DNA of 64,000 nucleotides from Bacillota bacterium (lineage in GTDB: Bacteria > Bacillota > Clostridia > DUPQ01), in assembly GCA_036743175.1 (NCBI GenBank), contig DAINQB010000002.1, positions 26,757-90,756 of the forward strand. Reading direction: 5' to 3'. Positions 607 through 29,411 of the stretch are shown piece by piece; position 1 is the first letter of the stretch, and each line of letters opens with the position of its first letter. The notes under the pieces are model-generated. The model worked only from the letters and a program-made list of their open reading frames with translations, had not been told where the DNA came from and made no database searches. The position numbers and the translations under genes were made by a program.

Positions 607-1251
607 TCAACGCCCTATAAACTCATATTCACTTATTTGTTCAAGGAAAGCAATTGCCTCATCCACTTGTTTTGGAACACAGACACTTACATATTCAGCC
701 TGGTCACCGGCTGTCTTGCTTATATGGTTGATATAGAGGTCATTTATCAGAATCCCCGGTGATTTACCTTTGATGAAACGTGAGTATCCTACCAGCATCT
801 CATTGAGCCATACTATCTGATAATTTTCCAGCTTGTTAAAATCAGGCAGGAAGTATATGTCAACGATGTCTCCTGCCGACATGCATCCTGCATTGAAATT
901 ATCTCCGTCAACCTTCAGTGCAACATACCTGTCATCCCCCCTATTCACGGAACTGTCATATACCGATGCAGCCGTAATGATCCCACCTTTTTCCACATCT
1001 CCTGTAAGTGTCATTCCAACAAGGGAATCCTTTCCCGGAGAAATCGGGGCAGAATCACCTTTATCAGTATAAATCACAAGTTCCCTGAGATATGACTCCT
1101 GAAGAACCGTACCTTTTCCATAATCATCCGTTGCAACAAATACCGTTGTTTCATTGCTCCTGGCAGCTGACTTTGCAATTGCTGCCTGTACAATTGTCAG
1201 AACAGCAGCCAGCAAAACTGCGATAATAATATAAATACTTTTTTTCATCAT
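607..1251 (-). CDS. cpaB: Flp pilus assembly protein CpaB/RcpC-like (SAF domain)
   Basis: An N-terminal signal/TM segment (MMKKSIYIIIAVLLAAVLTIVQA) is followed by a beta-rich SAF-like domain. It is the last gene of a tad-type operon and overlaps the upstream gene in an ATGA junction. Confidence 0.65.
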   Translation of the reverse strand: MMKKSIYIIIAVLLAAVLTIVQAAIAKSAARSNETTVFVATDDYGKGTVLQESYLRELVIYTDKGDSAPISPGKDSLVGMTLTGDVEKGGIITAASVYDSSVNRGDDRYVALKVDGDNFNAGCMSAGDIVDIYFLPDFNKLENYQIVWLNEMLVGYSRFIKGKSPGILINDLYINHISKTAGDQAEYVSVCVPKQVDEAIAFLEQISEYEFIGR

Positions 1252-1706
1252 TCCATCCTTATGCAGGGAATCTCAACATCCCTGTGAATATAGAACTGCA
1301 CCCTGTCACCATTGATTCTTCTGAAGGTAACCTTGACCAGCAGATGTATGAAGTCATACTGTGATGTATTTCCGAGCTCGCATCTTTCTCCTGCCTCATG
1401 TACACCGGCATCACACTCCTTTATCTTTATTCCTGCGGGAGTATTCTCCTCAAGGTATTCATGGATTTTGTTTTCAAGGCTTTCATCATCCGGGAATATT
1501 ATGTCTCCTGAAGCAAGACTTTCATCATCAATCTCCCAGTAGGCCGACATTGCGGCAAGGTCTGCAGTTTCGTTCATGATATTGACAACATACTTCATGT
1601 AGATTTTCTCTGTCATGCATGTAAAGAGAGGTATCATAAGGAAAACCAGAAAACCCAGCAAAACAATGCTCTGTCCCACGCCAAAACCTTTGTTCCACCG
1701 GATCAT
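1248..1706 (-). CDS. TadE/TadF-like minor pseudopilin (putative)
   Basis: A 152-aa protein with a single N-terminal TM helix (GQSIVLLGFLVFLMIPLF) and an acidic extracellular part. It sits in the tad operon between the pilin and cpaB. Confidence 0.45.
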   Translation of the reverse strand: MIRWNKGFGVGQSIVLLGFLVFLMIPLFTCMTEKIYMKYVVNIMNETADLAAMSAYWEIDDESLASGDIIFPDDESLENKIHEYLEENTPAGIKIKECDAGVHEAGERCELGNTSQYDFIHLLVKVTFRRINGDRVQFYIHRDVEIPCIRME

Positions 1707-2083
1707 CTGTTGACCACCTTTCTTGCAACCGTATTTCTTTCATATGACATTTCATAATCACGGCCGGTTCTTTGCAATATGCCGAACAACCCATTCTGTG
1801 TATATACCACACTTACAGAAAGCGTCATGACGGAGCCTGCCTTTGCCGAAGCAGGAGCGGATATGCTTATTTCACTGAATCCCATTGACTCAAGCTCAGT
1901 CCTCAGTTCGTTGCAGGCTGAACTTCCAAGCCCGGAATTATACTCCATTCTCATCAGGTAGTCCCTGCAGGTATCACGAAAATCCATGTTCCTTCCTATC
2001 GGGACAAAGCACTCCGTCATGTAAATGCATATGCTCATTACGATTACCAGCAAAACTGCCGATATCAAAGCTCTCTCTGCCAT
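1703..2083 (-). CDS. TadE-like/DUF4320-like pseudopilin (putative)
   Basis: A 126-aa protein with an N-terminal hydrophobic helix (ISAVLLVIVMSICIYM). Its position and size match the pseudopilins of Firmicutes tad loci. Confidence 0.4.
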   Translation of the reverse strand: MAERALISAVLLVIVMSICIYMTECFVPIGRNMDFRDTCRDYLMRMEYNSGLGSSACNELRTELESMGFSEISISAPASAKAGSVMTLSVSVVYTQNGLFGILQRTGRDYEMSYERNTVARKVVNR

Positions 2084-2311: not shown

Positions 2312-3088
2312 TCATGTAAATATACTGTCCAGAGCACTTTGCACATCCATGATTGTTGGTACAAGGACCATACAGACAACGATGCCACAAAGAAGAACCA
2401 CCGTAACAAGACATCGGGTCTTCAATGAGTCCGTCATTCGCTGTATGTATGCAAAGTATCTGTTGAACATCATTTGTTCCAGCCTGCCCAATAGCTCCTC
2501 ATCCCGGCTTTCAAACAGACCGTCCTTGATAGACATAGTAAAATTCCTTGATTCCGGTGTGTCTATCCTTTTTGATATATCATCAGCAAGCCTGGCATTG
2601 TCATATGTAACCGAATAGGCAGCACATGCTTCGGTAAAAATCTTTGACAGATCCCTGTCCTCAATAACCTCATGCATGTTCCTTAGTGCATCGGCAGGTC
2701 TTACTCCCGCTGCAATCTGATTCAGGATGTATTTATAAATGCGATAGGCATTACGCTGGAACAATGAATCATGTTTTCTTTTTCTGAATCGAAGCAATAA
2801 TCCCGAAAGAAAGGCAGGGGCCGTCATCAGCAATATTCCTCCGGCTGAATCAACAAAGACAGCTGTCAGAATACCAACAGGCAGCATTGCCATGGGAAGG
2901 AGAACATAGAATACAATGTCTGCCTTTGAATGCACCCCTGCCTTTTCCAATCTGTGGTATAACACAGGAAACAGTGGCTTAACTCTTTTGATGGTCTTGT
3001 TTGTTTCAACTCTCAGGCCGGCAGCCCTCGCATGATTCAAAAGAATCACTGCTGCTGATAAATTAAAAATGAAGATTGCAATTATCAT
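2312..3088 (-). CDS. tadC: TadC-like type II secretion system F-family membrane protein
   Basis: T2SS-F-like topology with two TM blocks flanking a cytoplasmic helical domain. It is adjacent to tadB and cpaF. Confidence 0.75.
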   Translation of the reverse strand: MIIAIFIFNLSAAVILLNHARAAGLRVETNKTIKRVKPLFPVLYHRLEKAGVHSKADIVFYVLLPMAMLPVGILTAVFVDSAGGILLMTAPAFLSGLLLRFRKRKHDSLFQRNAYRIYKYILNQIAAGVRPADALRNMHEVIEDRDLSKIFTEACAAYSVTYDNARLADDISKRIDTPESRNFTMSIKDGLFESRDEELLGRLEQMMFNRYFAYIQRMTDSLKTRCLVTVVLLCGIVVCMVLVPTIMDVQSALDSIFT

Positions 3089-3091: not shown

Positions 3092-3889
3092 TTACCTTCC
3101 AGTCATGAACAGCAGGGCTGCTGCAAAAACAGTTGAAAATACAAGCAGCAGACTGTTGCCAAAAGATGTATTGAGATAAAACTCTCCTGCAGTAGGGTTG
3201 TTCAGCAAAAACCAGAATGCAGTCGCTATTACAATGATGACTGTAATGTATACAGCGCCCCTGTCCCTGACCGTTGATATCTTTCTTTTGAAAGTTTCCT
3301 CGTCTATTCTGAAGTACTGCTGCTCCATCCCGGTAAAGAGCTTATGAAGGTTGCCTCCCTTTTCAGCAGCAAACCGAATGCTTCTGCTAAGATATCTCAT
3401 GTCCTCACTGCTGCTTTCTTTTTCAAGGATTGAAAACGCCTTGATTATATCCATCCCGCCGTTTATCCTTCCAAGTGTTCTGTCAACAAGCGTTCCCAGA
3501 GGTCTTTCGATGCCTGCCTCTGACGTTTTTCTAAGACAGAACACCATGTCGTTCCTTACTGCGCTCCATTTTGACATTGTCATAAGAAAGTATGTAATTT
3601 GGCAGGACTCCTTGTTCTGCCTTGCCCGTGAAACCATGTCAAAGGCACCATATACACAAAAAGCGGGTAACACTGAAATGGATATTGCAGCAGCAGTACT
3701 TCCTGTAACCAAATTGAAAATCATATAAGATACAACGAATGCAAATAAGGAGGCCAAGTATTCATTTTTCCTGTCAAAACGAATTCCAACGCCTTTGTTT
3801 CTTCCGGTAATCTTATCCCATATATCAGAATTGATATACACTGTGTATAAAACAAACACAGCAATGAGATTAATAACAAAATAAATCAT
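3092..3889 (-). CDS. tadB: TadB-like type II secretion system F-family membrane protein
   Basis: Paralogous to the following gene, with a T2SSF-like domain and N- and C-terminal TM segments. It sits immediately downstream of the CpaF ATPase. Confidence 0.75.
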   Translation of the reverse strand: MIYFVINLIAVFVLYTVYINSDIWDKITGRNKGVGIRFDRKNEYLASLFAFVVSYMIFNLVTGSTAAAISISVLPAFCVYGAFDMVSRARQNKESCQITYFLMTMSKWSAVRNDMVFCLRKTSEAGIERPLGTLVDRTLGRINGGMDIIKAFSILEKESSSEDMRYLSRSIRFAAEKGGNLHKLFTGMEQQYFRIDEETFKRKISTVRDRGAVYITVIIVIATAFWFLLNNPTAGEFYLNTSFGNSLLLVFSTVFAAALLFMTGR

Positions 3890-5070
3890 GGCATTTCCCT
3901 TTTGTAAATATTTTCATAATCAAGTTCCCGGCCGGTTGCTCCGAATACCGAAATGATCTCCATAACCTTGAATTGCTTCAGATAAACAACATAGTCAATG
4001 CCGGAGGCAGCGGATTCCATAAGTCTTTCAACGGAATCACCGGAACCGGCTCCTGCGGCAAGTGAAACTATCCTTCCTATGGCCTCACCGGCACTCTTTG
4101 AATGAATGGTTCCAAGCATTCTATGACCGGTGCATGATGCTTTTATGAACGAGTATGCCTCTTCGCCAACCAGTTCACCGACACAGTAAGTGTCAAGGGA
4201 CATTGTAAGTCCGTCCCTGACGAGTTTTTCAAGGGGAACAGGTTTGCCGCCTTCTTCAGGCCTCTTGGTTCTTTGCTCAATGCAGAAGGCCTTCTGCGGA
4301 TATATTTCAGCATCAGACTCTACAACCAGTACTCTTTCAAGTTCAGGCAGTCTATTGAGGAATGCCCTCATAAGTGTGGTTTTGCCTGCAGCTCCTTTCC
4401 CGCAGAACAGAATGCTTTGGCCGCTCTTCGAGAGTTCCGTCAGTATTTCAAAGGCCTTTTCATCAAGCATTCCGAGCATATGCAGGTCCTCCATTGTATA
4501 GGGAGAATGTCTGTGCTTCCTTATACTTATTGCCGGACCTGATACGTTGCGTGGTGGAATGGAAACATTTATTCTAAGATGTTTTTCCAGGTCAGCGGTC
4601 CTGCAGTGGGTATCATCTTCATTCAGGAACCCTCCGCTCCTTACCGCCACAAGACGGCAGTATGTCTCAAACGCCTTCATGCTGCCGAAATCAACATCAA
4701 TCCGCGACCTGATACCTAGACGTTTTATCGTGAATTCGTTGTATCTTGTTCCATCAATGTCACTGATGTCCTCATCATCTATGTATTTTTGCAGCACTCC
4801 GTAGCCGAACATGAAGTCGAATATACCTCTGATCAACTCATCCCTGTCAACTGAAAAATACAGGTTGTCCCTGTCCAGTATCCGAACTATTTCCCTGCGA
4901 AGGCCATCATTGTCATCCTTTGATCCAAATGCATTCATGACAAAGTAAGGTTTGTCCTCTATTATTTCCGCAGTTATTTTCATTGCGAGGCTTTCCGTTG
5001 AAACCGGCATTCCCGTTTTTTTCTCAACCATGCTGCTTACAGGCTCAAAAAGGGTTTTTACCAAAGGCAT
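3886..5070 (-). CDS. cpaF: CpaF/TadA secretion ATPase (VirB11/GspE family)
   Basis: Walker A reads GKGAAGKTT and Walker B reads LVVESDAEIY. The Asp box and His box are typical of TadA/CpaF. Confidence 0.9.
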   Translation of the reverse strand: MPLVKTLFEPVSSMVEKKTGMPVSTESLAMKITAEIIEDKPYFVMNAFGSKDDNDGLRREIVRILDRDNLYFSVDRDELIRGIFDFMFGYGVLQKYIDDEDISDIDGTRYNEFTIKRLGIRSRIDVDFGSMKAFETYCRLVAVRSGGFLNEDDTHCRTADLEKHLRINVSIPPRNVSGPAISIRKHRHSPYTMEDLHMLGMLDEKAFEILTELSKSGQSILFCGKGAAGKTTLMRAFLNRLPELERVLVVESDAEIYPQKAFCIEQRTKRPEEGGKPVPLEKLVRDGLTMSLDTYCVGELVGEEAYSFIKASCTGHRMLGTIHSKSAGEAIGRIVSLAAGAGSGDSVERLMESAASGIDYVVYLKQFKVMEIISVFGATGRELDYENIYKREMP

Positions 5071-6281
5071 CAGAACACCTCCAGTTTCTTCAAAGTCCTG
5101 GTCATATATTTACCACTTCGGCTTTTGTCCGATGGAATATAGGCGTTTCCGTTCCTGACCGCAGCTGCCCTCCCGGACTCAAAAGGCATGTTTCCAAGCC
5201 ATCTGATTTCAGATGACAGCCGTGCCATTGAGGGATCGGCAGCCTTGTCACTCAATCCATATCCCATAATATTGAGTCTCTTTGTATTTACTCCCTGCCG
5301 TCTCACAAAATGCAATGTAAGTGCATTGATTTTTCTTATATCAAAAGGGCCCTTTTCAACGGTGAAGATAATCTGGTCACATACAAAAAGTGATTCGATG
5401 AATATACTGTCATATGGAAACGGATTGCAGCATAAGACAATGGCATCATAACTGTTCTTCAATCTTCCGGAAATTTTTCTTATCAATCCATCAGAGCAGC
5501 CTTCATATGCATCAAAACTGTTCAGACATGGCAGTATATCGGGTTTACCGGGCTTGGAACCTGCTATGATTCCAAATCCATCTTCAATCCCCCCCTCAAA
5601 TCCGTATTCATGGGATGATCCGCTCATCTTCTTTATTCCCATCAGCATGTCAATCCCGGGAGCAAGTAAATCAAGGTCTGCAAGGAGAGTTTTGACATTG
5701 AGTGAAATGACTGATGCAATTTCACAGGCAAGAAAGGGGTTGCCCGGTATACATATAAGATAAGGATATGATTCAGCATCCTCTCCCCCGGTTTTTTTCC
5801 TGAGGAACCTTTGCAGCTCATTGGCCATCTCACTGGCAGATGAATACCTGTCCTTTGGAAGTTTCATCAAGGCTCTGTCTATCAATGGCCACATTCCCTT
5901 GTCAATGCCTTTCATGCTCCTGTCAAAGAGCTTCCTTGTCCTTCCTGTAAGACAGTAATGCATCAACTGACCCACTGAATAGATGTCGGATTGTTCCGTG
6001 GCTTCAAATCCCGCAAGTTTTTCCGGTGCGCAAAAACCAGACGATCCGTTTTCACCGGAGGTGGAACCGAAATCAATCAATATCGCTCTGTTTTCCCTTA
6101 TCATTATGTTGGAAGGTTTTATGTCTCCATGAATCATAGGAACGGGCCTTATGGAATGCATGTTAACAAGAATCCCAAGAAGATCCAGTATATAACCCAT
6201 GATTCTGAATTCCTCAGGTTTTTCATCCCTCAGGACATCCTCAAGGGTTCTGCCCTCGATCAGTTCCATTACAACAAACAA
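5070..6281 (-). CDS. Ser/Thr protein kinase-like domain fused to a TadZ/CpaE-like MinD-fold domain (atypical P-loop). The true N-terminus probably extends to about 6509.
   Basis: Hanks kinase motifs are present: VMELIEG, HGDIKPSNIM, DFGST and CAPE. The C-terminal 200 aa has a ParA/MinD-like fold (YDAIVLCCNPFPYDSIFIESLFVCDQIIFTVEK) with a degenerate Walker A (ICIPGNPFLACEIAS). The frame is open in-frame upstream to 6509 and encodes a kinase N-lobe, but it contains no ATG, GTG or TTG. The listed ORF starts at TTG 6281. Confidence 0.65.
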   Translation of the reverse strand: MFVVMELIEGRTLEDVLRDEKPEEFRIMGYILDLLGILVNMHSIRPVPMIHGDIKPSNIMIRENRAILIDFGSTSGENGSSGFCAPEKLAGFEATEQSDIYSVGQLMHYCLTGRTRKLFDRSMKGIDKGMWPLIDRALMKLPKDRYSSASEMANELQRFLRKKTGGEDAESYPYLICIPGNPFLACEIASVISLNVKTLLADLDLLAPGIDMLMGIKKMSGSSHEYGFEGGIEDGFGIIAGSKPGKPDILPCLNSFDAYEGCSDGLIRKISGRLKNSYDAIVLCCNPFPYDSIFIESLFVCDQIIFTVEKGPFDIRKINALTLHFVRRQGVNTKRLNIMGYGLSDKAADPSMARLSSEIRWLGNMPFESGRAAAVRNGNAYIPSDKSRSGKYMTRTLKKLEVF

Positions 6282-6585
6282 GGATGATTCCGTTTCAAAG
6301 GCATCATAGATTTCCGGAATACCGGGATGCCTGAGTTTTCTCAGGGATGAATAATCATTGGCTGAATTTCTGGCATTGCCCTTGATTTCCTTGACTATTC
6401 TTTCTGCTCCGGTAATCTCATCGTATGCAATATATACAACACGATTTTTATGTGATGAAATTTCCTTTAGTATTCGATATCTGTCATTCAGCTTTTTGAT
6501 GGTTTTGCCTCACTGGTATTTTTTGTCATTTATAAATTAACATATTTTACCATTTTGCGCAATACCTCTTCAATCATTTTTTTCT

Positions 6586-6698: not shown

Positions 6699-7259
6699 AT
6701 GAAAAAATTATTCAAGGTTACAACGAAGACAATTGTTGCAACAGGTCTTGGGGCAGCCCTTTTTACACTGCTGTTCATGTGGGTGAAGATACCTTCCCCG
6801 ATCCCTGAGACAAGTTTCCAGACTGCATACGGACTCGGTGGTATGTTTGCTGCTTTGTTCGGTCCCATTGCCGGTGCACTCATAGCTTTCATAGGCCACG
6901 CACTCAGTGATGCAATCCAGTATGGATCACCATGGTGGAGCTGGGTCATTGCAAGTGGAGTAGCCGGTTTTGTATTTGGTTTTGCATATCTCAAGTGCAG
7001 GGCTGAAGAGGGAATATTCACATGGAAGGATGTCCTCAATTTCAATATCATCCAGATAATAGGTAATGTAATTGCCTGGATAATTGTAGCTCCTGTCCTT
7101 GACATAGTCATCTATGCCGAACCGGTGAACCTTGTATTCACACAGGGTGCAGTTGCATGCCTTATGAACGTAATAAGTGCAGGTGTATTTGGATCATTGC
7201 TTCTTTGGGCATATTCACTTACAAGAACCAAAAAGGGAAGCCTTAAGAAAGAGGACTAG
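6699..7259 (+). CDS. ECF transporter S component (substrate-capture subunit), substrate unknown
   Basis: A 186-aa protein with six predicted TM helices. It is followed directly by ecfA-ecfA' and ecfT, which is the arrangement of a dedicated group I ECF module. Confidence 0.7.
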   Translation: MKKLFKVTTKTIVATGLGAALFTLLFMWVKIPSPIPETSFQTAYGLGGMFAALFGPIAGALIAFIGHALSDAIQYGSPWWSWVIASGVAGFVFGFAYLKCRAEEGIFTWKDVLNFNIIQIIGNVIAWIIVAPVLDIVIYAEPVNLVFTQGAVACLMNVISAGVFGSLLLWAYSLTRTKKGSLKKED

Positions 7260-7267
7260 TTTACTTA

Positions 7268-8980
7268 ATGAAAAAAGAACCGATTATCGCGTTCCGTGGG
7301 TTTTCATTCCAATACTTCAGCCAGTCTGAGCCCACACTGCACGATATAAACCTGGAAATCAATCCGGGAGAGAAAATAATGATAGCAGGGCCCAGTGGCA
7401 GCGGAAAAAGCACCCTGGGCCATTGCTTGAATGGACTTATTCCCTTTGCTTACAAAGGAGAAATTTCCGGGAGCCTGCAAGTCGGCGGAACAGAAACCCG
7501 GGATATGGATATCTTCACACTTTCAAAGACTCTTGGTACTGTTCTTCAGGATGCAGATGGTCAGTTCGTGGGACTGACCGTAGGTGAAGACATCGCTTTT
7601 TCAATGGAGAATGACAGGATACCCCAGTCAGAGATGAAGGAACGTGTAAGGAAGGTCGCAAAGATGGTTGACATGGACAGGTGGCTCACCAACTCTCCAT
7701 ATGAATTATCCGGAGGCCAGAAACAACGGACTGAGCTGGCAGGCGTCATGATAGATGACGTTGATGTGCTGCTCTTTGATGAGCCCCTTGCCAACCTTGA
7801 CCCAGCCACCGGAAGACAGGCCATTGAAATCATTGATGACATCCACAGGGAATCCGGAAAAACAATCATAATAATTGAACACAGGCTTGAGGATGTCCTC
7901 CACAGGCCCATTGACAGAATCATTGTTCTTGATGAGGGGCGGATTGCAGCCGACATGAATCCCCATGAATTGATTTCCTCAGCGATTCTCAAGGAAACCG
8001 GGATTCGTGAACCTCTTTATGTAACTGCACTGAAGTTTGCAGGTGTGAAGGTTACCCCAGAAATGAAGCCGGGACACATTACGACACTTTCCATCAATGA
8101 TGATGAAAAAGAAGCAGTAAAGCTTTGGTACCAGTCAGTGGAACCGGATTTCCCGCCGATATCCAATGACAATGTACTTGAACTGGAAGGCATTTCCTTC
8201 AGCTATGATGAAGGAGTGGAGGTTCTGCATGATGTCAGTTTTGGAATCAGGCAGGGTGAAATGCTGTCATTGGTGGGAATGAACGGAGCCGGCAAGTCCA
8301 CCATCGCAAAACTGATGTGCGGATTCGAGAAAGAAAGCAAGGGGCGGATCCTTTATATGGGAGATGATATCGCAGATGAAAGCATCAAGGAGAGAGCCGA
8401 GAGAATAGGCTATGTGATGCAAAATCCAAATCAGATGCTTTCACAGCCCATGATCTTTGATGAAGTTGCACTGGGACTTAAACTCAGGAACCTGCCTGAA
8501 GAGGAAATTGACATAAGGGTACGAAAGGCGCTGGAAATCTGCGGGTTGCTTCCCTTCATCAAATGGCCTGTATCTGCATTAAGCTACGGTCAGAAGAAAA
8601 GGGTTACCATAGCTGCAATACTCGCCCTTGACCCGAAGCTGATTATCCTGGATGAACCGACGGCAGGACAGGATTACAGACATTATACAGAAATCATGGA
8701 ATTTCTAAGGACCATAAACCATTCCGGTGTTACAGTTCTTATGATTACCCATGATATGCATCTTATGCTGGAATACACAGCAAGGTCATTGGTTGTCACT
8801 GATGGTCGTCTGATATGTGACCAGCCTGCTTCCGTTGTTCTTACTACACAGGAGGTAATTGAATCAGCCAATCTGAAGGAAACATCATTGTTCACGCTGG
8901 CACAGATGGTTGGAATAGACGACGAAACATCATTTGTACAAAGATTCATAGATTATGAAAGGCAGGTGGAGAAAAAATGA
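7268..8980 (+). CDS. ecfA: ECF transporter ATPase, fused tandem ABC domains (EcfA-EcfA')
   Basis: There are two Walker A motifs (GPSGSGKST and GMNGAGKST), two LSGGQ-type signatures (LSGGQKQR and LSYGQKKR) and two Walker B motifs. Confidence 0.9.
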   Translation: MKKEPIIAFRGFSFQYFSQSEPTLHDINLEINPGEKIMIAGPSGSGKSTLGHCLNGLIPFAYKGEISGSLQVGGTETRDMDIFTLSKTLGTVLQDADGQFVGLTVGEDIAFSMENDRIPQSEMKERVRKVAKMVDMDRWLTNSPYELSGGQKQRTELAGVMIDDVDVLLFDEPLANLDPATGRQAIEIIDDIHRESGKTIIIIEHRLEDVLHRPIDRIIVLDEGRIAADMNPHELISSAILKETGIREPLYVTALKFAGVKVTPEMKPGHITTLSINDDEKEAVKLWYQSVEPDFPPISNDNVLELEGISFSYDEGVEVLHDVSFGIRQGEMLSLVGMNGAGKSTIAKLMCGFEKESKGRILYMGDDIADESIKERAERIGYVMQNPNQMLSQPMIFDEVALGLKLRNLPEEEIDIRVRKALEICGLLPFIKWPVSALSYGQKKRVTIAAILALDPKLIILDEPTAGQDYRHYTEIMEFLRTINHSGVTVLMITHDMHLMLEYTARSLVVTDGRLICDQPASVVLTTQEVIESANLKETSLFTLAQMVGIDDETSFVQRFIDYERQVEKK

Positions 8981-9810
8981 GAACAGGCTTCTTCACCGCC
9001 CAGAAATCCGATTCACCGATACACAGGCTTTCAGGATTCACAAAGCTCATATGCTTCCTTATTCTGACCGGAGCAGTAATGTATTCATATGACCTGCGTG
9101 TGATTCTTTGTGTCATGGTATTTTCATTCATCATACTGAAGATATCAAAGATACGGTTCAGCCAGATTAAACTGATGGTGATATATGTAGTCGTATTCCT
9201 TGCCATAAATGCAATACTGACCTTTCTTTTTTCTCCGGGATACGGTACCGAAATCTATGGCACACGGCATGTCCTTTTGAAATTATTCGGAAGATATGAC
9301 ATAACTGCAGAAACGCTTTTCTTCATTGCTACTAAGTTCATGAAGTACTCTTCCGTTATCCCGCTTGGTATGATATTCCTGCTTACTACTGACCCCAGCG
9401 AGCTGGCATCTTCACTGAATGCCGTCGGAGTACATTACAAGATTGCATTTTCCTTCTCACTTACACTGAGGTACTTTCCTGATATTCAAAGGGACTACCG
9501 GGATATTTCCCAGGCACAGCAGGCAAGGGGTCTTGAGATGTCTGGTAAGGCCAGGATGTGGGACAGGTTCAAAAGGGCACTTGCAATTTTGCTGCCATTG
9601 ATTCTATCAACACTCGATAGAATAGAGACAATAACCAACGCAATGGATCTGAGGGGTTTTGGAAAACACAGGAAAAGAACGTGGTACAGCAGGAAGAGGA
9701 TGACCAGGGCTGATTTCATTGCACTTGCAGTTTCACTTATTATCCTTTCGGCAACACTTTTGGTTGCATTTTTCATTAACAATGGAAGGTTCTACAATCC
9801 CTTCATTTAG
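8977..9810 (+). CDS. ecfT: ECF transporter transmembrane component EcfT (CbiQ family)
   Basis: A polytopic membrane protein with the C-terminal coupling helices typical of EcfT. It overlaps the ecfA stop in an ATGA junction. Confidence 0.85.
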   Translation: MRTGFFTAQKSDSPIHRLSGFTKLICFLILTGAVMYSYDLRVILCVMVFSFIILKISKIRFSQIKLMVIYVVVFLAINAILTFLFSPGYGTEIYGTRHVLLKLFGRYDITAETLFFIATKFMKYSSVIPLGMIFLLTTDPSELASSLNAVGVHYKIAFSFSLTLRYFPDIQRDYRDISQAQQARGLEMSGKARMWDRFKRALAILLPLILSTLDRIETITNAMDLRGFGKHRKRTWYSRKRMTRADFIALAVSLIILSATLLVAFFINNGRFYNPFI

Positions 9811-9837
9811 GGTAAATCATATACAGGAGGATGACCT

Positions 9838-10686
9838 ATGAAATCACTTATGGTTTTTCAAACGGATTTTACATACAAGGAAGGTGCGGTTTGTGCAATG
9901 TACGGGGTAGTCAAGAGTGTCGACCGGGAACTTGAGATTCTCGACGGAACCCATGAAATCCCTCAGTATGATACATGGAGTGCTTCCTACAGGCTGTATC
10001 AGTCAATGAAGTTCTGGCCCCGGGACACGGTTTTTGTTTCAGTCGTGGACCCCGGTGTAGGTACTCCCAGAAAGGCATCAGTTGCAAGAACCAGTGACGG
10101 TTACTATGTGGTTACTCCGGACAACGGCTCACTGACCCACCTGAAGAGACTTGCAGGGATTGAAGAAATACGCGAAATAGATGAAAGGATAAACAGGCTC
10201 AGGGGAAAAGGGACAGAGGAAGTTGCAATTTTCCATGGCCGGGATGTATTCGCATATTGCGGAGCAAGGCTCGCTGCCGGAATCATCAGTTTTGAGGAAG
10301 TCGGTCCATCATATCCGGTTGATGAAATAGTAGAGCACGAGATGCATAAACCGGAAATTTCCATGAACAGTGTCAGTGGCATAATAGAAATACCTGATCC
10401 AAACTTCGGCAACTCCTGGACAAATATCCCTCTCAAGGATTTCAGAACAGCTGGTTTTGAATATGGAGATATGGTTGACGTAGTTATAAAGAACAAGGAT
10501 GATGTGGTCTTTGATAAGAAAATCCTTTTCCACCAATCATTTGGGTTCGCACAAAAGGGTCAGCCGATGATATATAACAATGAACTCATGAACATTGCCT
10601 TTGCGGTCAACCAGGGAAGTTTCCTTGAAACTTATGGTATAGGTTATGGCAGTGACTGGACTGTCCGGTTCACAAAGGAGATATGA
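9838..10686 (+). CDS. SAM hydroxide adenosyltransferase family protein (DUF62, fluorinase/chlorinase-like fold), copy 1
   Basis: Hallmark motifs are present: FQTDFTYKEG, VFVSVVDPGVGT and FHGRDVFAY. The protein is 282 aa long, which is canonical for this family. Confidence 0.85.
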   Translation: MKSLMVFQTDFTYKEGAVCAMYGVVKSVDRELEILDGTHEIPQYDTWSASYRLYQSMKFWPRDTVFVSVVDPGVGTPRKASVARTSDGYYVVTPDNGSLTHLKRLAGIEEIREIDERINRLRGKGTEEVAIFHGRDVFAYCGARLAAGIISFEEVGPSYPVDEIVEHEMHKPEISMNSVSGIIEIPDPNFGNSWTNIPLKDFRTAGFEYGDMVDVVIKNKDDVVFDKKILFHQSFGFAQKGQPMIYNNELMNIAFAVNQGSFLETYGIGYGSDWTVRFTKEI

Positions 10687-11528
10687 CCATGAAGAAATTA
10701 TTGGTTTTTCAAAGTGACTTCGGTCTTGTTGACGGTGCTGTTGCAGCAATGTACGGAGTTGCCTTTGAAATAGATGAAAATCTAAGGGCATACAATCTCA
10801 CTCACGATATACCTCCATATAACGTATGGGAAGCATCTTACAGACTTTTTCAGGCAATGGAATACTGGCCCAGGGAAACGGTCTTTGTTTCCGTGGTGGA
10901 TCCCGGAGTCGGAAGCGGAAGGAAGAGTGTGGTAGCAAGAACAGTAAAGGACCAGTACGTGGTCACCCCTGACAATGGAACGCTGACACACCTTAAAAAA
11001 TATGTCGGCATCGCCAAAGTAAGGGAAATTGAGGAAAGCAGACACAGGCGGAAGGAATCAGAGCACTCACATACATTCCATGGCCGGGACGTCTATGCAT
11101 ATACAGGAGCAAAACTGGCTTCGGGCATCATATCATTTGAGGAAGTAGGTCCGGAACTGGATACCAATGGAATCATTGAACTTGAAACAGGCGATGTCAC
11201 AGTTTCAAGCGACAGTATAACCGGTTCAATAGACATTCTGGATGTGCGGTTCGGGTCTCTTTGGACAAATATCTCAAGGGAGGATTTCCTTGGACTTGGA
11301 TTCCAGTATGGAGACAAGGTCGAAGTTATAATCAGAAACGGTTCAAGAACCATATACAACAACAGGATCAGATTCGGAAAATCCTTTGCAGATGTTTATA
11401 TCAGTGAACAGATAATATATGTAAATTCGTTGTATAGGATGGCAATTGCAATAAACCAGGGCAATTTTGCAAAGGCATACAATATATCAACTGATCCCAG
11501 CTGGACAGTGGAGTTCAGGAAAGTATAG
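10683..11528 (+). CDS. SAM hydroxide adenosyltransferase family protein (DUF62), copy 2
   Basis: It carries FQSDFGLVDG, VFVSVVDPGVGS and FHGRDVYAY, and is a paralogue of the preceding gene. The two genes overlap by 4 nt. Confidence 0.85.
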   Translation: MTMKKLLVFQSDFGLVDGAVAAMYGVAFEIDENLRAYNLTHDIPPYNVWEASYRLFQAMEYWPRETVFVSVVDPGVGSGRKSVVARTVKDQYVVTPDNGTLTHLKKYVGIAKVREIEESRHRRKESEHSHTFHGRDVYAYTGAKLASGIISFEEVGPELDTNGIIELETGDVTVSSDSITGSIDILDVRFGSLWTNISREDFLGLGFQYGDKVEVIIRNGSRTIYNNRIRFGKSFADVYISEQIIYVNSLYRMAIAINQGNFAKAYNISTDPSWTVEFRKV

Positions 11529-12941: not shown

Positions 12942-13892
12942 TCAGTGCGTGATAATTGTACCGGCTTCACCACGGATTGCCTTTTGCAGATTGTCGGGTG
13001 ATGTGATGATTGCTTTGCTTCCACCCTTTTCAAGGAACTGCAAAGCGGCTTCAATCTTGGGAAGCATGCTGCCCGGGGCAAAGTGTCCTTCATCTCTAAG
13101 CTTCTTCAGTTCCTTTACAGTGATTTCATGCAGCTTCAGTTCATTGGGCTTACCAAAATCTATACATACATTCTGTACAGCCGTCGAGATGATGAACACA
13201 TCGGCATTGAGAAGGTTCGCAAGCATTCCTGATGCATGGTCCTTGTCTATTACCGCATTTATTCCTGTGTAATGACTGTTCTCATCTATTGTCACAGGAA
13301 TTCCACCTCCGCCTACTGCAATTACTGTAAATCCGGACTTAACCAGCTTATCTATTGCGTCAATTTCGACTATGCTCTTTGGCATGGGTGAAGGAACAAC
13401 CCTTCTGTATCCCCTGTTGGAGTCTTCAATCACAACCCAGTCGGGATGGTCGTTTCTTATTTTTTCAATCTGCTCCGGTCCGTAGAATGAACCGATTGGT
13501 TTTGCAGGATTCTCAAAGGCCGGGTCATTGGCATCAACCTCAACCTGTGTAACGATGGTAACGGCATTTTTGACAATGTTCCTTCTGGCAAACTCATTGT
13601 GCAGCGCCTGCTGTATCTGGTATCCGAGTGCTCCCTGGGTATCTGCATCGCAGCTAACCAATGGAACGGGATGCATATGTTCAACTTCTTCGGCAATCTC
13701 GGAACGTCTCATTATGAATCCTACCTGAGGCCCGTTTCCATGGGTGACAACTACCTCATATCCCTCCTCAATCAGATCCACAATATAGCGGACCGTTTCA
13801 CATATCGCATCATATTGATCCGACACATTGACATGATCCTTGTCTCTTATCAGTGAGTTCCCGCCTATTGCAATGACGGCAAGTCTTGACAT
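12942..13892 (-). CDS. arcC: carbamate kinase
   Basis: The protein begins MSRLAVIAIGGNSL and has a carbamate kinase-like amino acid kinase fold over about 316 aa. It is adjacent to the ygeW-like gene. Confidence 0.9.
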   Translation of the reverse strand: MSRLAVIAIGGNSLIRDKDHVNVSDQYDAICETVRYIVDLIEEGYEVVVTHGNGPQVGFIMRRSEIAEEVEHMHPVPLVSCDADTQGALGYQIQQALHNEFARRNIVKNAVTIVTQVEVDANDPAFENPAKPIGSFYGPEQIEKIRNDHPDWVVIEDSNRGYRRVVPSPMPKSIVEIDAIDKLVKSGFTVIAVGGGGIPVTIDENSHYTGINAVIDKDHASGMLANLLNADVFIISTAVQNVCIDFGKPNELKLHEITVKELKKLRDEGHFAPGSMLPKIEAALQFLEKGGSKAIITSPDNLQKAIRGEAGTIITH

Positions 13893-13900
13893 AAAACCTC

Positions 13901-14884
13901 CTATTTGCCACCCATTGTCAGGGTCATAACCGCTTTTGCTGTATGCAATCTGTTTTCTGCCTCGTCATATACTATGGAATGGGGTCCGTCGATTACGGAA
14001 TCCACAACTTCATTGCCTCTATCAGCAGGAAGTGCATGCATGTACATTACATCACGGCTTGCCAAGTCCATCATTTCCTCAGTACACTTCCATCCCCTGT
14101 AGGACTCAAGGAGGTCATCGACTACAGCTGTGCTTTGGTTGTTGACCCAGCTTCCCCAGTTCTTCGGAATGACAACATCCGCATCCTTGTATGCTTCCTC
14201 CATGTTGTGGGTTATCCTGAATTTACCATTGTTCAGCCTTGCATTTTCCTTTGCCTGCTCAATTGCCCAGTCAGGAAGGTCATAGCCTTCGGGATATGCC
14301 AGTGTTACATCCATGCCGTACCTCGGGAATAGGAGTGCCTGTGTCAGCGGGACAGATATCGGCTTCTTATGACTTGTTGCATAAGCCCAGATTATTGAAA
14401 CCTTCAGGTTCCTTGTAGTCTCGGTTTTCTCCTTTATGGTCATGAGGTCCGCAATTCCCTGCATCGGATGATAAATGTCGCACTGCAGGCTCATAATGGG
14501 AACCGTTGCATGTTCTGCCATGCCTCTGAGATATTTGTTCCCAACTTCCCAGTAACAGTTCCTGCATGCAATGGCATGACCATATCTTGAAAGAATAATT
14601 GCCGTATCCTTTGCTGATTCCCCATGGGATATCTGCATGGTGCTTGTATCAAGGAAGTTTGCATGTCCTCCAAGCTGCGCAATACCGGCTTCCATGGAAT
14701 TCCTTGTCCTCGTGGACTGTTCAAAGAACATGAGGAACATGGTCTTTCTAAGGAGATATGGAGTATCAAGGCCCATGGCGTATTTTCTCTTCAAATCGAA
14801 GGATACGTCCAGGAGCGTGTCCAGTTCTTCCTTGTTCCAGTCCTGCAATGTTATGAAATGCTTCCCTTTGAATTCTGTTTTCAT
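13901..14884 (-). CDS. ygeW: YgeW-like carbamoyltransferase (ornithine/aspartate carbamoyltransferase superfamily)
   Basis: The STRTR carbamoyl-phosphate motif and an HPxQ motif are present. The start was chosen at MKTEFKGKHFITL, which has a GAAGGGGA RBS. It is next to arcC and the ygeY-like gene. Confidence 0.85.
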   Translation of the reverse strand: MKTEFKGKHFITLQDWNKEELDTLLDVSFDLKRKYAMGLDTPYLLRKTMFLMFFEQSTRTRNSMEAGIAQLGGHANFLDTSTMQISHGESAKDTAIILSRYGHAIACRNCYWEVGNKYLRGMAEHATVPIMSLQCDIYHPMQGIADLMTIKEKTETTRNLKVSIIWAYATSHKKPISVPLTQALLFPRYGMDVTLAYPEGYDLPDWAIEQAKENARLNNGKFRITHNMEEAYKDADVVIPKNWGSWVNNQSTAVVDDLLESYRGWKCTEEMMDLASRDVMYMHALPADRGNEVVDSVIDGPHSIVYDEAENRLHTAKAVMTLTMGGK

Positions 14885-14897
14885 ATAATCTTCCCCT

Positions 14898-16103
14898 TCA
14901 TTTTGCGTATTTTTTTGTATATACAGATGGTATCGCTGCATACATTGCCGCAGCCTTTACCAATTCATCCTTCCAGGTCCTCTCGTTGGGAGCGTGGGCC
15001 TGGTCTTCATGTCCCGGACCGAACCCTACACAAGGTATCCCGAAACGGCCCATTATTGAAACTGCATTGGTTGAGAAAGTCCATTTATCAACCAGAGGCT
15101 TTTTGTCGAATAGATTTTCATATGCGTCGACCAGGGTCCGGCAGGCCGGATGATCTTCATCGAGGACCCATGTCGGGAAATAACTTTTTGTGGGATATGA
15201 AAGCCCTGTAAATGAAGGTCTTTCATAATCATACATTTCAACGGTTGCTCCGGCTTCTTTTACAGATTTCAGATTCCTGATCTGTTCCAGTGCATACTCC
15301 CATGTCTCACCGTCTGTCAGCCTTCTGTCTATGGAAATTGAACATCCGTCAGCCACGGCACATCTTGAAGGCGAGCTGAAGAAAATTTCTGAAACCGTAA
15401 GACTGCCTTTTCCAAGAAAAGCATTATCCATCAGAACCTCATGAAGTTCCTTGAGTTCTGATATTATGGGAGCCATCTTATATATTGCATTGTCTCCTCG
15501 CTCGGGAGCGGAACCATGGCAGCTTATACCGGAAGTTGAAACCTTTATTTCCATCCTTCCCCTATGGCCTCTGTATATGTTGAGTGATGTCGGCTCTGTT
15601 ATTACCACGAACTCAGGTCGTATGTCGCTCTGCTCAATCATGTACTGCCAGCAAAGACCATCACAGTCTTCTTCCTGTACAGTACCTGTTACCAGAAGTG
15701 TATAATCATCCAGCAGGTCCAGGTCCTTTATGATTTTACCGGCATAAACCATGGAAGCCATTCCACCTTCCTGGTCACTTCCTCCTCTGCCGATTATTAC
15801 TTCATCATCTTCATATCCTTCGTAAGGGTCATAATCCCAGAGCTTCCTGTCTCCTATTCCAACGGTGTCTATATGTGCATCCATGGCTATCAGGTGTCTG
15901 CCATGGCCTATGTATCCAAGCACATTTCCCATGGGGTCGATTTCAACCCTGTCGAAACCCACCTTCTCCATCTCTTCCTTGATCCTTAGGATGACCTTCT
16001 CCTCATCACAGCTCTCACTGGGAATCCTGATCATATCCCTGAGGAACGCTGACATCTCACCACGGTATTCCTCTGCCTTTTCCATTATCTTATTGAAATC
16101 CAT
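14898..16103 (-). CDS. ygeY: M20 family peptidase, YgeY-like
   Basis: M20 dimetallopeptidase signatures and a GGAGGA RBS. It lies in a ygeW/ygeY/hydantoinase context. Confidence 0.85.
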
Positions 16104-16123
16104 CTGTATGTCCTCCGCTTCAC

Positions 16124-17476
16124 TCAGCGCATCTTCAAGATCATTTCATCATAGTGTTTGATCTTATTATATTCATCGTCCCAGAAATCCTGGCTTTTCA
16201 TGGAATCCATATATTCCTTAGTATATCCGAAAGGAATCCAGTCCCTTTCCTTCTGGTCAAAGAGCTGCTGCTTCTTTTCCGGCCTTCTGAAATCATAAAT
16301 ATCTTCCATGTCGGCCTTGTCGAAGATATCACGTTTCCATCTTCTTAGAACGAAATCCTCTGTTTCAAGCGAACGCCTGTCAAGATCTTCTATTACGGAA
16401 TCATACCGGTCAAAGCCATCCGTTGCAATGGTTACAACGTTGTCACCGGGGCCCAGTCTCAGGAACTTGGCCATCTTGATTGCACCTATTATATTACAGA
16501 TTCCGGAAACACCGAACTTGTCCCTGAGATACAGGGCTGTATCCATCGGTATCCCGGATTCAACCAGTATATCCGTTCCGTCATGTATTACCTTAAGGCC
16601 TTTTACAGAATCATCATCATGTATAAGAACTACAAAGTCTGTATTCAGTACATTGTGGATAAGGGTGCACATTTTATCACCGATTCCTTCAATGCGATGC
16701 TGGCCTCTTCCTCCGTTGGTCAGGGTTGAGCACTCATAAGGTTCAAGGGCTGCAACCTTTGCTTCGGGGAATGCATTCTTGATTTCATCACCTGCGGCTA
16801 TGGTTCCTGCTGAACCCGGTGCGCTTGCAAAACATGCTATTCTTCCATTCCCGATTCCTTTTACGGCTTCAATGGCCGAATTACCGGTAACATATCTGTG
16901 GAACCTGTAGTTTGGAAGCAATTCAAACTGGGCAAGGCTCCTGTTCTTTGGTTCCTTCATCAACTCATATGTTCTTTGAAGTGTCAGAATTACATCGGAT
17001 TCCGTTCCTGGAGTGAGGTCAAGTTTTGCTCCGTATTTCTTAATACGGTCGTAGCGTTCCTTGCTCATATTGTCTGGCATGATTACTATTGAATCATATC
17101 CCATCAGATTGCATATATATGAGACTCCGATTCCGAAATTTCCTGTGGAAGGGCCCAGAATCGTATGCTCACCGGGAAGAATCGTTCCATCTACACAACC
17201 TTCTATCAATGTGGAATATGCAGGGCCGACCTTGTGTGAACCTGATGGAAAATATTTCCCCAGCATTACCACAATATTGGCATCTACGCCGGTCAGTTCC
17301 TGCGGAAGCACCACCTTCATCACACTGTTGTCTTCATCCTTCCAGGTAATGTTGAAGAGATTGATGGGATCCAGTTCGTTTTCCCTGGCCCCCAAAGCCC
17401 TGGCCTTGACACCGGGATCGATTTTATCCCTTTCAAGCATTTCCTCATAAGTAGGTCCAAAAGGTATCTTGTTCAT
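16124..17476 (-). CDS. PLP-dependent enzyme, tryptophan-synthase-beta (fold type II) superfamily, with an N-terminal extension
   Basis: The likely PLP-lysine block is SGSHKVG, followed by Gly-rich loops ([10 protein letters not shown]). The start was chosen at MNKIPFG, which has an AGGAGG RBS. Confidence 0.65.
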
Positions 17477-17496
17477 GTATATCCTCCTATGGATGT

Positions 17497-18729
17497 TCAT
17501 TCATCCATGTATTTTTCCAATTCCTTCATGTCAGGTTCCATATAAATAGGTTTTCCGGCAGCCTTCATGACATTCTTTACATCCTTCAAACCATTTCCCG
17601 TCACTATAGTACAAACTGATTCACCGGGCTTTATTATTCCCATTTCCACTGCAGCCTCAACGCCTGCATATCCAGTGGCTCCTGCGGGTTCTGCAAATAT
17701 ACCTTCTTCTTTTCCGAGAAGATTCATGGCTTTCAATATATGCTGGTCTGATACAGCCACCCATTCCCCCTTTGATTTTTCCACTGCATTCATGGCCTTG
17801 ACCGGGTTTCTGGGTATTCCAACCGATATACTGTCTGCTATTGTGTTTTCTTCGGCTTTCCTGAGTAGTTCATGGTTTATTGCTGCAGTGACAAAAGGGC
17901 TGCATCCATCTGACTGAACTCCCAGAATCCTTGGGATTCTGTCAGTTATTCCAAGTTGAAGCAAATCGAAAAAGCCCTTGTATACACCGGCAATCGTGCA
18001 ACCGTCCCCTACTGAAACCGCCACCCAATCGGGAACATTCCATCCAAGTTGTTCTGCGATTTCAAGTGCAACTGTCTTTTTACCTTCCACGAGGTGTGGA
18101 TTGATTGCTGCATTCCTGTTGTACCATCCCCATTTATCTATCGCCGCCTTTGAAAGGTTGAAGGCATCACCATAATCTCCCCTGACCACGATTACCCTTG
18201 CCCCGAACAATAAAAGTTGTGCGAGTTTTCCTTCGGGAGCTCTTTCCGGCACGAAAATGACCGTCCGAAGTCCCATCCTGGCTGCATTTCCAGCCAATGA
18301 TGATGCTGCGTTTCCCGTTGAACTGCATGCGATTGTGTGGTTTTTGGTTTCAATGGCACCGGCCACAGCAACTGCAGACGCCCTGTCCTTCAATGAAGCC
18401 GTCGGATTGATCCCATCATCTTTTATATATAGATTCTTTATTCCAGTATGTGCCATGATCCTGTTTGCCTTGTAAACAGGGGTCCATCCTACACGCAGGA
18501 ACTCAGAGGATCTTGATAAATCAACGGAAATCAAGGGACTGTACCGGAACATTGACAAATCCCTGTTCCGGATAAAATATTCCCTGCCCATGATTTTTTT
18601 GATTGCTGTATAGTCAAATACGACATCAAGGATTCCTTTTTCTCCGCAGGACCTGCAGGTGAAGATTCCTTCATCCTTTCCATATTCCCTGCCACACAGT
18701 GTACACCGGAAACCCTCAATATATGTCAC
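17497..18729 (-). CDS. threonine synthase-like PLP enzyme with N-terminal zinc ribbon
   Basis: An N-terminal CTLCG..CRSCG zinc ribbon is present. The SLKDRAS PLP-lysine motif resembles the threonine synthase and cysteine synthase families. Confidence 0.7.
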   Translation of the reverse strand: MTYIEGFRCTLCGREYGKDEGIFTCRSCGEKGILDVVFDYTAIKKIMGREYFIRNRDLSMFRYSPLISVDLSRSSEFLRVGWTPVYKANRIMAHTGIKNLYIKDDGINPTASLKDRASAVAVAGAIETKNHTIACSSTGNAASSLAGNAARMGLRTVIFVPERAPEGKLAQLLLFGARVIVVRGDYGDAFNLSKAAIDKWGWYNRNAAINPHLVEGKKTVALEIAEQLGWNVPDWVAVSVGDGCTIAGVYKGFFDLLQLGITDRIPRILGVQSDGCSPFVTAAINHELLRKAEENTIADSISVGIPRNPVKAMNAVEKSKGEWVAVSDQHILKAMNLLGKEEGIFAEPAGATGYAGVEAAVEMGIIKPGESVCTIVTGNGLKDVKNVMKAAGKPIYMEPDMKELEKYMDE

Positions 18730-18807
18730 ACATTACTCCTTATATCAGTTTAACGAAATTAAACATGTTTAGTGCCATTAAATTCTATCACAACTGATAT
18801 TCTTTTA

Positions 18808-20529: not shown

Positions 20530-20530
20530 A

Positions 20531-24465: not shown

Positions 24466-24476
24466 GGAAACCTCCT

Positions 24477-25550: not shown

Positions 25551-25553
25551 AAA

Positions 25554-29404: not shown

Positions 29405-29411
29405 GCGTCTC

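Follow-up and report, generated by a model that had tools for sequence, protein, structure and literature searches.

In Tad pilus systems, the TadZ/CpaE protein decides where and whether pili get built. TadZ/CpaE is described as a ParA/MinD-type protein that carries an atypical receiver domain and dimerizes in the ATP-bound state. In Caulobacter, six CpaE dimers have been fitted around the CpaF motor, with inter-dimer contacts proposed via the receiver (REC) domains (PMC13170226). Here we describe a Tad operon in a 64,000-nucleotide stretch of contig DAINQB010000002.1 from a clostridial Bacillota bacterium (assembly GCA_036743175.1, positions 26,757 to 90,756; this whole stretch is called the window), in which the gene in the TadZ slot encodes a Ser/Thr kinase domain fused to a MinD/ParA-type domain without an ATP-binding loop. 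We read the fusion as an accessory protein that takes the TadZ slot in the Tad (type IVc) pilus machine of a Gram-positive bacterium; it would combine a MinD-like static adaptor with a kinase that supplies regulatory input. We give this reading a probability of roughly 0.5.

A kinase fused to a MinD/ParA-type domain in the TadZ position

On the minus strand, the reading frame of the fusion gene is open from 6509, immediately past TGA 6512..6510, to the stop codon TGA 5072..5070. The 479-residue translation of 6509..5073 (minus strand) gives the residue numbering used for all motifs, and it contains each of the motifs quoted in the original prediction (VMELIEG, HGDIKPSN, DFG, CAPE, ISSHKN and the Walker A replacement ICIPGNPFLACE). 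The Pfam Pkinase model (PF00069) matches residues 24–236 (E 3.5e-23, 82.8 bits versus a gathering cut-off of 31.7), and the best partial match in NCBIfam is PknB_PASTA_kin (NF033483, the PknB/Stk1 PASTA-kinase model). A Foldseek search of the PDB with the full-length AlphaFold model (predicted local distance difference test score, pLDDT, 81; predicted template-modelling score, pTM, 0.77) returns the kinase domains of M. tuberculosis PknB as top matches, with 26–27% identity.

The C-terminal part (residues ~250–479) has no Pfam match, and its sole NCBIfam signal is TIGR03815 CpaE_hom_Actino, the model for Ssd, a CpaE homologue of actinobacteria, with a score below the threshold (E 0.027; 13.6 bits, where 154 are required). 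A sequence profile of this domain reaches ParA PF-32 (E 2e-8) and MinD (E 5e-8) in the PDB, in alignments that begin just past the GKT of the target Walker A motif; the profile was required, and a single-sequence search of the PDB with the same domain gave noise only. The structure model of the C-terminal domain, built with 20 family members, has a pLDDT of 85.8 and a pTM of 0.86. The proposed fusion of a kinase fold to a MinD fold is borne out by these matches. Among the hidden Markov model (HMM) searches that had been suggested, the one for Pkinase was positive, the one for TadZ_N was negative, and the MinD-like half was recognized by its profile and not by Pfam.

As had been predicted, the fusion gene occupies exactly the TadZ/CpaE position, directly upstream of the T2SSE/TadA ATPase gene. 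Its stop codon overlaps the ATG of tadA by one base (TGATG), and the tadA Shine–Dalgarno sequence, GGAGGTG, sits within the 3′ end of the kinase-fusion gene; the fusion gene is translationally coupled to tadA. The fusion gene opens the operon, because the ECF transporter upstream of it is divergent. The gene order is what we take to be the Gram-positive tad order, the fusion gene standing where tadZ is expected, and, with neither a TadZ_N nor a Response_reg match in the protein, the kinase stands in place of the TadZ receiver domain, again as foreseen.

The kinase domain retains the catalytic triad

The catalytic β3 lysine, Lys40, is part of the sequence IVKEI, a position that reads I/V-K-E in all members of the near clade, which are 36–64% identical overall. 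It is followed by the hinge VMELIEG, by a non-RD catalytic loop, HGDIKPSN, in which the catalytic Asp, Lys and Asn are kept, and by an activation segment that runs from DFG (146–148) to CAPE (160–163). Lys40, Asp129, Asn134, Asp146 and the APE residues 161–163 are invariant across the near clade; the invariant alignment columns of the catalytic loop are H127, G128, D129, I130, K131, P132 and N134, and the motifs HGDIKPxN, DFGS and SSGFCAPE are likewise unchanged in these relatives.

Four features are degraded, namely the Gly-rich loop (lost), the αC glutamate (replaced by Asp), HRD (replaced by HGD) and the activation segment (12 residues). The GxGxxG loop is missing from the whole near clade, where S-[SGA]-[HRG]-[KR] is found instead (the turn ISSHKN in the window), whereas the sister clade keeps LGKGGMxTVY at this position; the near clade has in turn preserved the replacement loop, S-x-[HR]-K. 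The αC residue that aligns with the Glu of the Lys–Glu salt bridge is Asp (NDY) in every near-clade member, whereas the canonical clade keeps the Glu. Between DFG and APE there are 12 residues here, versus 22 in the canonical sister clade.

A pseudokinase has been defined by the loss of at least one of the VAIK lysine, the HRD aspartate and the DFG aspartate (bioRxiv 10.1101/2025.01.12.632604). In the fusion protein the β3 Lys, the loop Asp and the DFG Asp are all present and invariant. Judged by its motifs, the domain is not a pseudokinase under this triad definition but an atypical kinase, whose activity is possibly weakened. The earlier suggestion that both halves look impaired thus stands for the MinD-like half (see below) and does not stand for the kinase as a pseudokinase. 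Because Lys40, Asp129, Asn134, DFG and APE are invariant at 36–64% identity and the β1–β2 turn is conserved, we think that the near clade retains ATP binding and some phosphotransfer, as a non-RD kinase that would be independent of activation-loop phosphorylation.

The degraded features are also what would be seen if the domain were a catalytically dead pseudokinase kept for protein contacts, like that of EssB/YukC, and the whole protein a nucleotide-independent adaptor. Relative to the canonical clade, the loss of the Gly-rich loop, the αC change from Glu to Asp and the shortening of the activation segment from 22 to 12 residues all agree with such a pure scaffold, the view taken in the original prediction, and other sub-clades have decayed further (DFD/DFS/DFA, HLEISTDT), so that pseudokinase decay is recurrent in the family. 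EssB provides a precedent for a pseudokinase as a structural part of a Gram-positive secretion machine (PMC11217815). However, an intact triad, Mg-binding Asn and APE motif, invariant down to 36% identity, would be unexpected if catalysis were irrelevant, and the replacement loop S-x-[HR]-K is conserved too. We consider the pure scaffold a serious possibility, to which we give less than even odds.

Another way to reconcile retained catalytic residues with a substrate-binding activation segment of only 12 residues is a nucleotide switch that phosphorylates no protein, an ATPase or ATP-driven conformational switch, trimmed like the minimal kinases of the Bud32 or RIO type, that would replace the role of a MinD half without an ATP site of its own. 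The Bud32 and RIO1 models do give weak secondary HMM matches to the fusion protein. The best sequence and structure matches are nevertheless of the PknB type and not to Bud32 or RIO, the phosphate-holding Gly-rich loop is missing, and the idea is entirely inferential; we regard it as unlikely.

The MinD-like domain lacks a nucleotide-binding site

Model secondary structure and HMM alignments place the remnant of the Walker A region at residues 252–263. The deviant Walker A motif, (K)GGxxGK[ST], is lacking, and PGNPFLACE stands in its place. In the model of the 243-residue construct, strand β1 (residues 14–19) and helix α1 (residues 22–32) are separated by a two-residue turn (G-N), and the eight-residue P-loop is, according to this model, deleted. 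The strand equivalent to Walker B, AIVLCCNPFPYD, carries a cysteine at the site of the aspartate (AIVLCC-NPFPYD, in which FPYD is invariant in the near clade); a distant clade has A/V-N or V-G at this site. With its P-loop deleted and Cys in place of the Walker B Asp, the MinD-like half is predicted to be unable to act as a MinD-type ATPase.

The near-clade proteins end directly after the last helix of the fold (…LKKLEVF), with no separate C-terminal amphipathic helix for membrane targeting. ATP-driven dimerization and membrane or DNA cycling are not expected, because the P-loop, the Walker B Asp and the amphipathic helix are absent. We note that members of the canonical-kinase sister clade (P0014, P0016, P0017 and P0020) carry a C-terminal tail of 25–60 residues, amphipathic-looking in, e.g., EMLKEWLGMAV and LLHKFRTTFLGNVF; such tails resemble the membrane-targeting helix of MinD/CpaE.

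In addition, TadZ is not a closer relative of the C-terminal domain than MinD, FleN or ParA are, and none of the TadZ/CpaE HMMs recognizes the domain at its cut-off. E. rectale TadZ (PDB 3FKQ) was not reached by the C-domain sequence profile at E values up to 10, and no sequence link to 3FKQ was found for the non-kinase relatives P0129 and P0255.

The gene most likely starts at a conserved non-canonical codon

From 6509 there is no in-frame ATG, GTG or TTG until the TTG at 6281, and open reading frame (ORF) calling at canonical starts gives a product of 403 residues. The closest database relatives, P0001 (99%), P0003 and P0005, are annotated as 399-residue proteins that start with MEL or MEF. 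These facts would suit a decaying gene or an artefact, in which the N-lobe is untranslated and only a 399–403-residue product, made from Met-81 or from the TTG and consisting of the kinase C-lobe and the MinD-like domain, exists; between TGA 6512..6510 and TTG 6281 no ATG, GTG or TTG offers itself. The 80 upstream codons are, however, open in every orthologue and conserved as protein in three diverged ones, while the other two frames are full of stops. In these three orthologues the N-lobe has a pN (non-synonymous differences per site) of 0.08–0.20, a pS (synonymous differences per site) of 0.59–0.89 and a dN/dS of 0.04–0.09; the N-lobe is coding and under strong purifying selection. Distant homologues of 481–482 residues carry complete N-lobes and begin exactly at the aligned position (MRAIKKLNERY versus GKTIKKLNDRY). 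Together with the start signal described next, this makes the truncated product very improbable.

A Shine–Dalgarno-like GAGG is followed, after a 7-nucleotide spacer, by the putative start codon ATC. The arrangement GAGG-N7/8-AT(C/T/A) recurs in seven diverged lineages without a usable canonical start, the codon being ATC in five of them, ATT in another and ATA in the last. Common to the near-clade loci is the sequence ...ATACCAGTGAGGCAAGACTATCAAAAAG..., with GAGG, seven bases and ATC; locus L011 has GGGGAGGG-7-ATC, L002 has GAGG-8-ATT and L010 has GAGG-8-ATA (compared at L001 5700–5775, L002 6215–6290, L004 330–410, L005 760–835, L010 8915–9000 and L011 330–410). On this comparison, the protein most likely has 476 residues and is initiated at a conserved non-canonical AUC/AUU/AUA codon. 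The in-frame N-lobe of the original prediction is thereby upheld as coding sequence, and 6509 is not the start but merely the first codon after the TGA.

Three other explanations of the upstream frame were rejected. A start at GTG 6513 with a +1 shift fails in L004, where the GTG is GCG; a short ORF from the upstream ATG 6529 with a −1 slip at A-AAA-AG fails in L004 and L005, which have TTG, and L005 is without the slippery run; and a pseudogene is refuted by the dN/dS values. The failure of the frameshift routes counts against the truncated product as well. The non-canonical start also accounts for the truncated gene calls of the closest relatives. In public annotation, P0001, P0003, P0005, P0002 and P0150 (from L006/L007, L001, L005, L004 and L011) are N-terminally truncated and without the kinase N-lobe; the calls run for 399 residues from MEL/MEF or begin at an internal TTG, and one is named ‘BcsQ’.

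The ~60 nucleotides upstream of the gene are conserved at the nucleotide level far beyond the proteins (38–64% identity), with the pattern TCTTGC-N6-ATGGTAAwwTATGTTAAT...TGACAATAAATACCA. A promoter-like TTGAAG-18-TAAAAT with an upstream TG lies inside this conserved block. No conserved RNA structure was found in the leader (alifold energy ~0, single folds of −3 to −4 kcal/mol), and Rfam has no match anywhere in the window. The conserved stretch may act as a promoter or operator, or else as a leader without structure that helps initiation at a weak start codon.

Related loci and the spectrum of the family

In all 11 distinct kinase-fusion loci inspected, which represent four kinase sub-clades and include the window, the fusion gene lies directly upstream of a T2SSE ATPase gene, and the ATPase gene is followed by tadB, tadC, pilin and SAF protein genes. 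The loci comprise the near clade (L001, L002, L004/L008, L005 and L009–L011), L003 (YCD clade), L089 (HLD clade), the P0020 contig (canonical YRD clade) and the window itself; the expectation that related tad loci would show the same fusion is thus confirmed. A general regulator of cell polarity or division that merely adjoins the tad genes and is unrelated to the pilus might be considered, as MinD/ParA-fold proteins and PknB-like kinases are known to act in Firmicutes division. Yet adjacency to tadA is held across clades as low as 25% identical, the fusion and tadA coding regions share one base, and the outer flanks of the loci are unrelated (ECF transporter, sortase, arginine or purine catabolism genes, SecA, FtsH). 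We hold this to be the least probable of the alternatives, with hardly any weight.

A profile of the C-terminal domain alone, searched against 1.84 billion cluster representatives, matched 116 representatives at E<1e-30, a number that rises to 297 at E<1e-10 and to 1,957 at E<1e-3, and all members inspected have WGN/PGN-x-E-F-x-C-E in place of Walker A. The N-terminal architecture was tallied for the best 150 representatives: 56 carry a Hanks kinase domain, 43 an N-terminal domain of 120–230 residues (no Pfam match in the ten members scanned), 30 are stand-alone C-terminal domains, and the other 21 have N-terminal lengths of 40–120 or more than 230 residues.

Among the fusion sub-clades, the kinase motifs are graded from fully canonical to clearly dead. 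The canonical clade has LGKGGMxTVY, AIKEI, αC Glu, YRDMKPSN, DFG and a 22-residue activation segment; the window's clade has no Gly loop, keeps the Lys, and has αC Asp, HGD, DFG and a 12-residue segment; and the HLD clade often has DFD, DFS or DFA, with some members plainly dead (HLEISTDT). Because the sister clades include fully canonical motifs (LGKGGM, AIKEI, Glu, YRDMKPSN and DFG), the ancestral kinase was in all likelihood active.

In the GTDB species set, the near-clade form was found in only four uncultured Clostridia metagenome-assembled genomes; the scan patterns are specific to the near clade, also returned many unrelated kinases, and underestimate the distribution of the family. The source names of family members are just ‘protein kinase’ or ‘BcsQ’. 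The family is sizeable, and no description of the architecture was found in the searchable full-text literature, the coverage of which is incomplete. An atlas of bacterial Ser/Thr kinases has no mention of MinD or pili, and its few word-start hits to ‘ParA’ are not connected with this architecture (bioRxiv 10.1101/2025.01.12.632604).

The non-kinase member P0129 (L088, 7001–8314) also occupies the tadZ slot of a tad-like operon. This operon (L088, 1–14000) directly follows Tcp-type conjugation genes (TcpC, TcpE, an AAA_10 ATPase and an M23 peptidase), and an IS605 OrfB lies near it, which suggests that some pilus operons of the P-loop-less MinD-like family ride on conjugative elements.

Proposed role in Tad pilus assembly

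Starting from the established domain identities, motif states, gene order, translational coupling and purifying selection, we propose the following role for the fusion protein. The MinD-fold half would most likely act, like CpaE/TadZ, as a docking piece on the TadA motor or on the TadB/C platform, and thus as an adaptor that is static. The PknB-like kinase domain, in place of the TadZ receiver, would supply a nucleotide-dependent regulatory input; going by its motifs, it is expected to be constitutively folded and of low or altered activity, still able to bind ATP, and not a fully dead scaffold. By phosphorylating either itself or a part of the Tad machine, of which TadA is the most plausible target, it would license assembly. 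The level of expression would be set by the weak non-AUG start (AUC after GAGG) and by the translational coupling to tadA. Docking, substrate and activity are all inferred; taken together, the arrangement suggests a direct link from a kinase module to the assembly of the pilus.

Several points weigh against this proposal. The Gly-rich loop is absent, αC has Asp for Glu and the P+1/activation segment is shortened, and each of these Gly-loop, αC and P+1 changes is often seen in pseudokinases and might do away with phosphotransfer. Neither the operon nor the larger ORFs of the window were found to encode an FHA protein, a PP2C phosphatase or a clear candidate substrate, so that the PP2C partner raised at the outset did not materialize. 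The docking to TadA is put forward from gene position alone.

A further-reaching version is tentative and, in our view, rather doubtful: a clostridial lineage may have swapped the ATP switch of TadZ, so that the MinD half became a nucleotide-free adaptor and the fused kinase the nucleotide-sensing regulator, with the non-AUG start throttling the operon.

If this broader version holds, a Ser/Thr kinase would for the first time be seen as a core part of a type IV filament machine, a kinase that would be active in some clades, remodelled in the clade of the window and dead in others. At least 56 kinase-fused clusters at 50% identity place a Hanks kinase at the control point of the Tad pilus, so that a connection of Ser/Thr phosphosignalling with the assembly of type IV filaments can be tested directly. 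The gradation of the family from canonical kinases to pseudokinases would be useful for the study of kinases that become scaffolds, and TadZ-based detection models for Tad systems would overlook the kinase-fusion loci.

The operon and its surroundings

The features of the fusion gene and of the operon are listed in Table 1. The putative prepilin ORF has a hydrophobic helix after G/FGLYEV and no match to a Flp HMM, and a gene of 68–83 residues is found at the same position in related loci. The 126- and 152-residue genes, which have no HMM match, are candidate TadE/F-type minor pilins. SAF matches are present at the position equivalent to the last operon gene in L003, L088 and L089. A prepilin peptidase (TadV/CpaA) was found neither in the operon nor in 30 of the 40 window ORFs of at least 180 residues (16–59 kb), and a plasmid search with the operon DNA gave no match.

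Table 1. Positions of the fusion gene, its motifs and the Tad operon genes in the window
Feature	Position	Strand	Basis
Whole fusion gene, 476 aa, Hanks kinase and P-loop-less MinD-like domain	5070..6500	-	Open frame; homologues
Putative start ATC and stop TGA of the fusion gene	6500..6498; 5072..5070	-	Homologues of ~481 aa begin at the aligned position
Hanks-type Ser/Thr kinase domain, ~residues 8-240	5790..6488	-	Pfam Pkinase, NCBIfam, Foldseek
MinD/ParA-fold domain without nucleotide-binding motifs, ~residues 250-479	5073..5762	-	
ISSHKN turn (β1-β2, residues 17-22) at the site of the Gly-rich loop GxGxxG	6444..6461	-	Translation, alignment
Catalytic β3 lysine K40 within IVKEI	6390..6392	-	I/V-K-E in all near-clade members
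Hinge VMELIEG	residues 80-86	-	Translation
Catalytic loop HGDIKPSN (residues 127-134)	6108..6131	-	Alignment
Activation segment, DFG to CAPE	6021..6074	-	Alignment
Walker A region remnant ICIPGNPFLACE (residues 252-263)	5721..5756	-	Model secondary structure, HMM alignments
Walker B-equivalent strand AIVLCCNPFPYD, Cys at Asp site	5409..5444	-	Alignment
Shine–Dalgarno-like GAGG (6511..6508), 7-nt spacer, putative start ATC (6500..6498)	6498..6511	-	Seven-lineage comparison
Promoter-like TTGAAG-18-TAAAAT with upstream TG	6544..6573	-	Consensus match only
TadA/CpaF-type secretion ATPase	3886..5070	-	Pfam T2SSE E 3.9e-23, TIGR03819 E 1e-36
TadB-like platform protein	3092..3889	-	Pfam T2SSF E 6.4e-7
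TadC-like platform protein	2312..3088	-	Weak Pfam T2SSF E 0.02; second-platform position in all related loci
Putative Flp-type prepilin, 72 aa, ...NTKG/FGLYEV..., mature part ~51 aa	2083..2301	-	Read from sequence
Two small genes, 126 and 152 aa, N-terminal hydrophobic segments	1248..2083	-	Position and size conserved in related loci
CpaB/RcpC-like SAF-domain protein, last operon gene	607..1251	-	TIGR03177 pilus_cpaB E 4e-6, Pfam SAF E 0.005

The plus-strand region 6699..11528 holds the divergent ECF transporter, which comprises an S component, a fused double ATPase and a T component. The transporter is followed by two tandem paralogues of 282 and 281 residues, which by synteny with L001 are S-adenosylmethionine hydroxide adenosyltransferase (SAM_HAT) proteins. 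A large purine/xanthine catabolism cluster (12942..33593, minus strand) encodes two xanthine-dehydrogenase-type molybdoenzymes with FAD subunits, XdhC, adenine deaminase, several amidohydrolases, a dihydroorotate-dehydrogenase-like Fe-S protein, two pyridoxal-phosphate enzymes, an M20 peptidase, an OTCase-like protein and carbamate kinase, and part of this set adjoins the tad operon in L002 too. The larger ORFs of the window are mostly those of purine catabolism, branched-chain amino-acid synthesis, ribonucleotide reductase and a two-component pair. Two stretches, 34000..36000 and 42000..46000, have a G+C content of 0.38–0.39, versus ~0.45 elsewhere, and may be insertions; the former holds a plus-strand gene for an AAA_14/DUF4143 ATPase amid a minus-strand region, and the latter a 506-residue ORF (43037..44557) with no Pfam match.

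Comparison with described systems

Like TadZ/CpaE (E. rectale TadZ, PDB 3FKQ; C. crescentus CpaE; A. actinomycetemcomitans TadZ), the fusion gene occupies the slot upstream of tadA/cpaF. Unlike in these proteins, the N-terminal half is a kinase, with no match to TadZ_N or Response_reg, and the Walker A-like motif K/RGGxGxS/T, a consensus taken from bioRxiv 10.64898/2026.07.08.737194, is absent. HMM matching, receiver and Walker A all place the fusion protein outside the TadZ/CpaE family; what it shares with the family is position and fold class. That a domain swap or fusion and the loss of the receiver can be accommodated in the TadZ slot is seen in the Bdellovibrio TadZA protein (bioRxiv 10.64898/2026.07.08.737194). 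In that protein, however, TadA is the fusion partner of a TadZ part that still has the Walker A-like motif, and no kinase is involved. With MinD, FleN and ParA the C-terminal half shares the MinD/ParA fold, whereas the P-loop with the signature lysine is gone and the Walker B Asp is Cys.

The PknB/Stk1-type kinases are the best structural and sequence matches of the N-terminal half, and the catalytic Lys, Asp and Asn, DFG and APE are common to both. In contrast to them, the fusion protein has no transmembrane segment, PASTA repeats or Gly-rich loop, it has HGD instead of HRD and an αC Asp, and its activation loop is ~10 residues shorter and without phospho-acceptor threonines.

In the H1 type VI system of P. 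aeruginosa, PpkA is a separate membrane kinase that acts via the FHA protein Fha1, and the PP2C phosphatase PppA reverses its action. The concept shared with this PpkA–Fha1–PppA pathway is that of a Hanks kinase that licenses the assembly of a secretion or filament machine, whereas here no FHA or PP2C gene is found in the operon or among the larger ORFs of the window. Lastly, EssB/YukC of type VIIb secretion and the pairs of Ser/Thr kinase (STK) and PPM phosphatase of T7SSc and T7SSd likewise bring a kinase-fold module, in a structural or regulatory capacity, together with a Gram-positive envelope nanomachine (PMC11217815). Compared with EssB/YukC, the fusion protein belongs to another machine and has no membrane anchor; it is joined to a MinD-fold partner, and its catalytic triad is intact.

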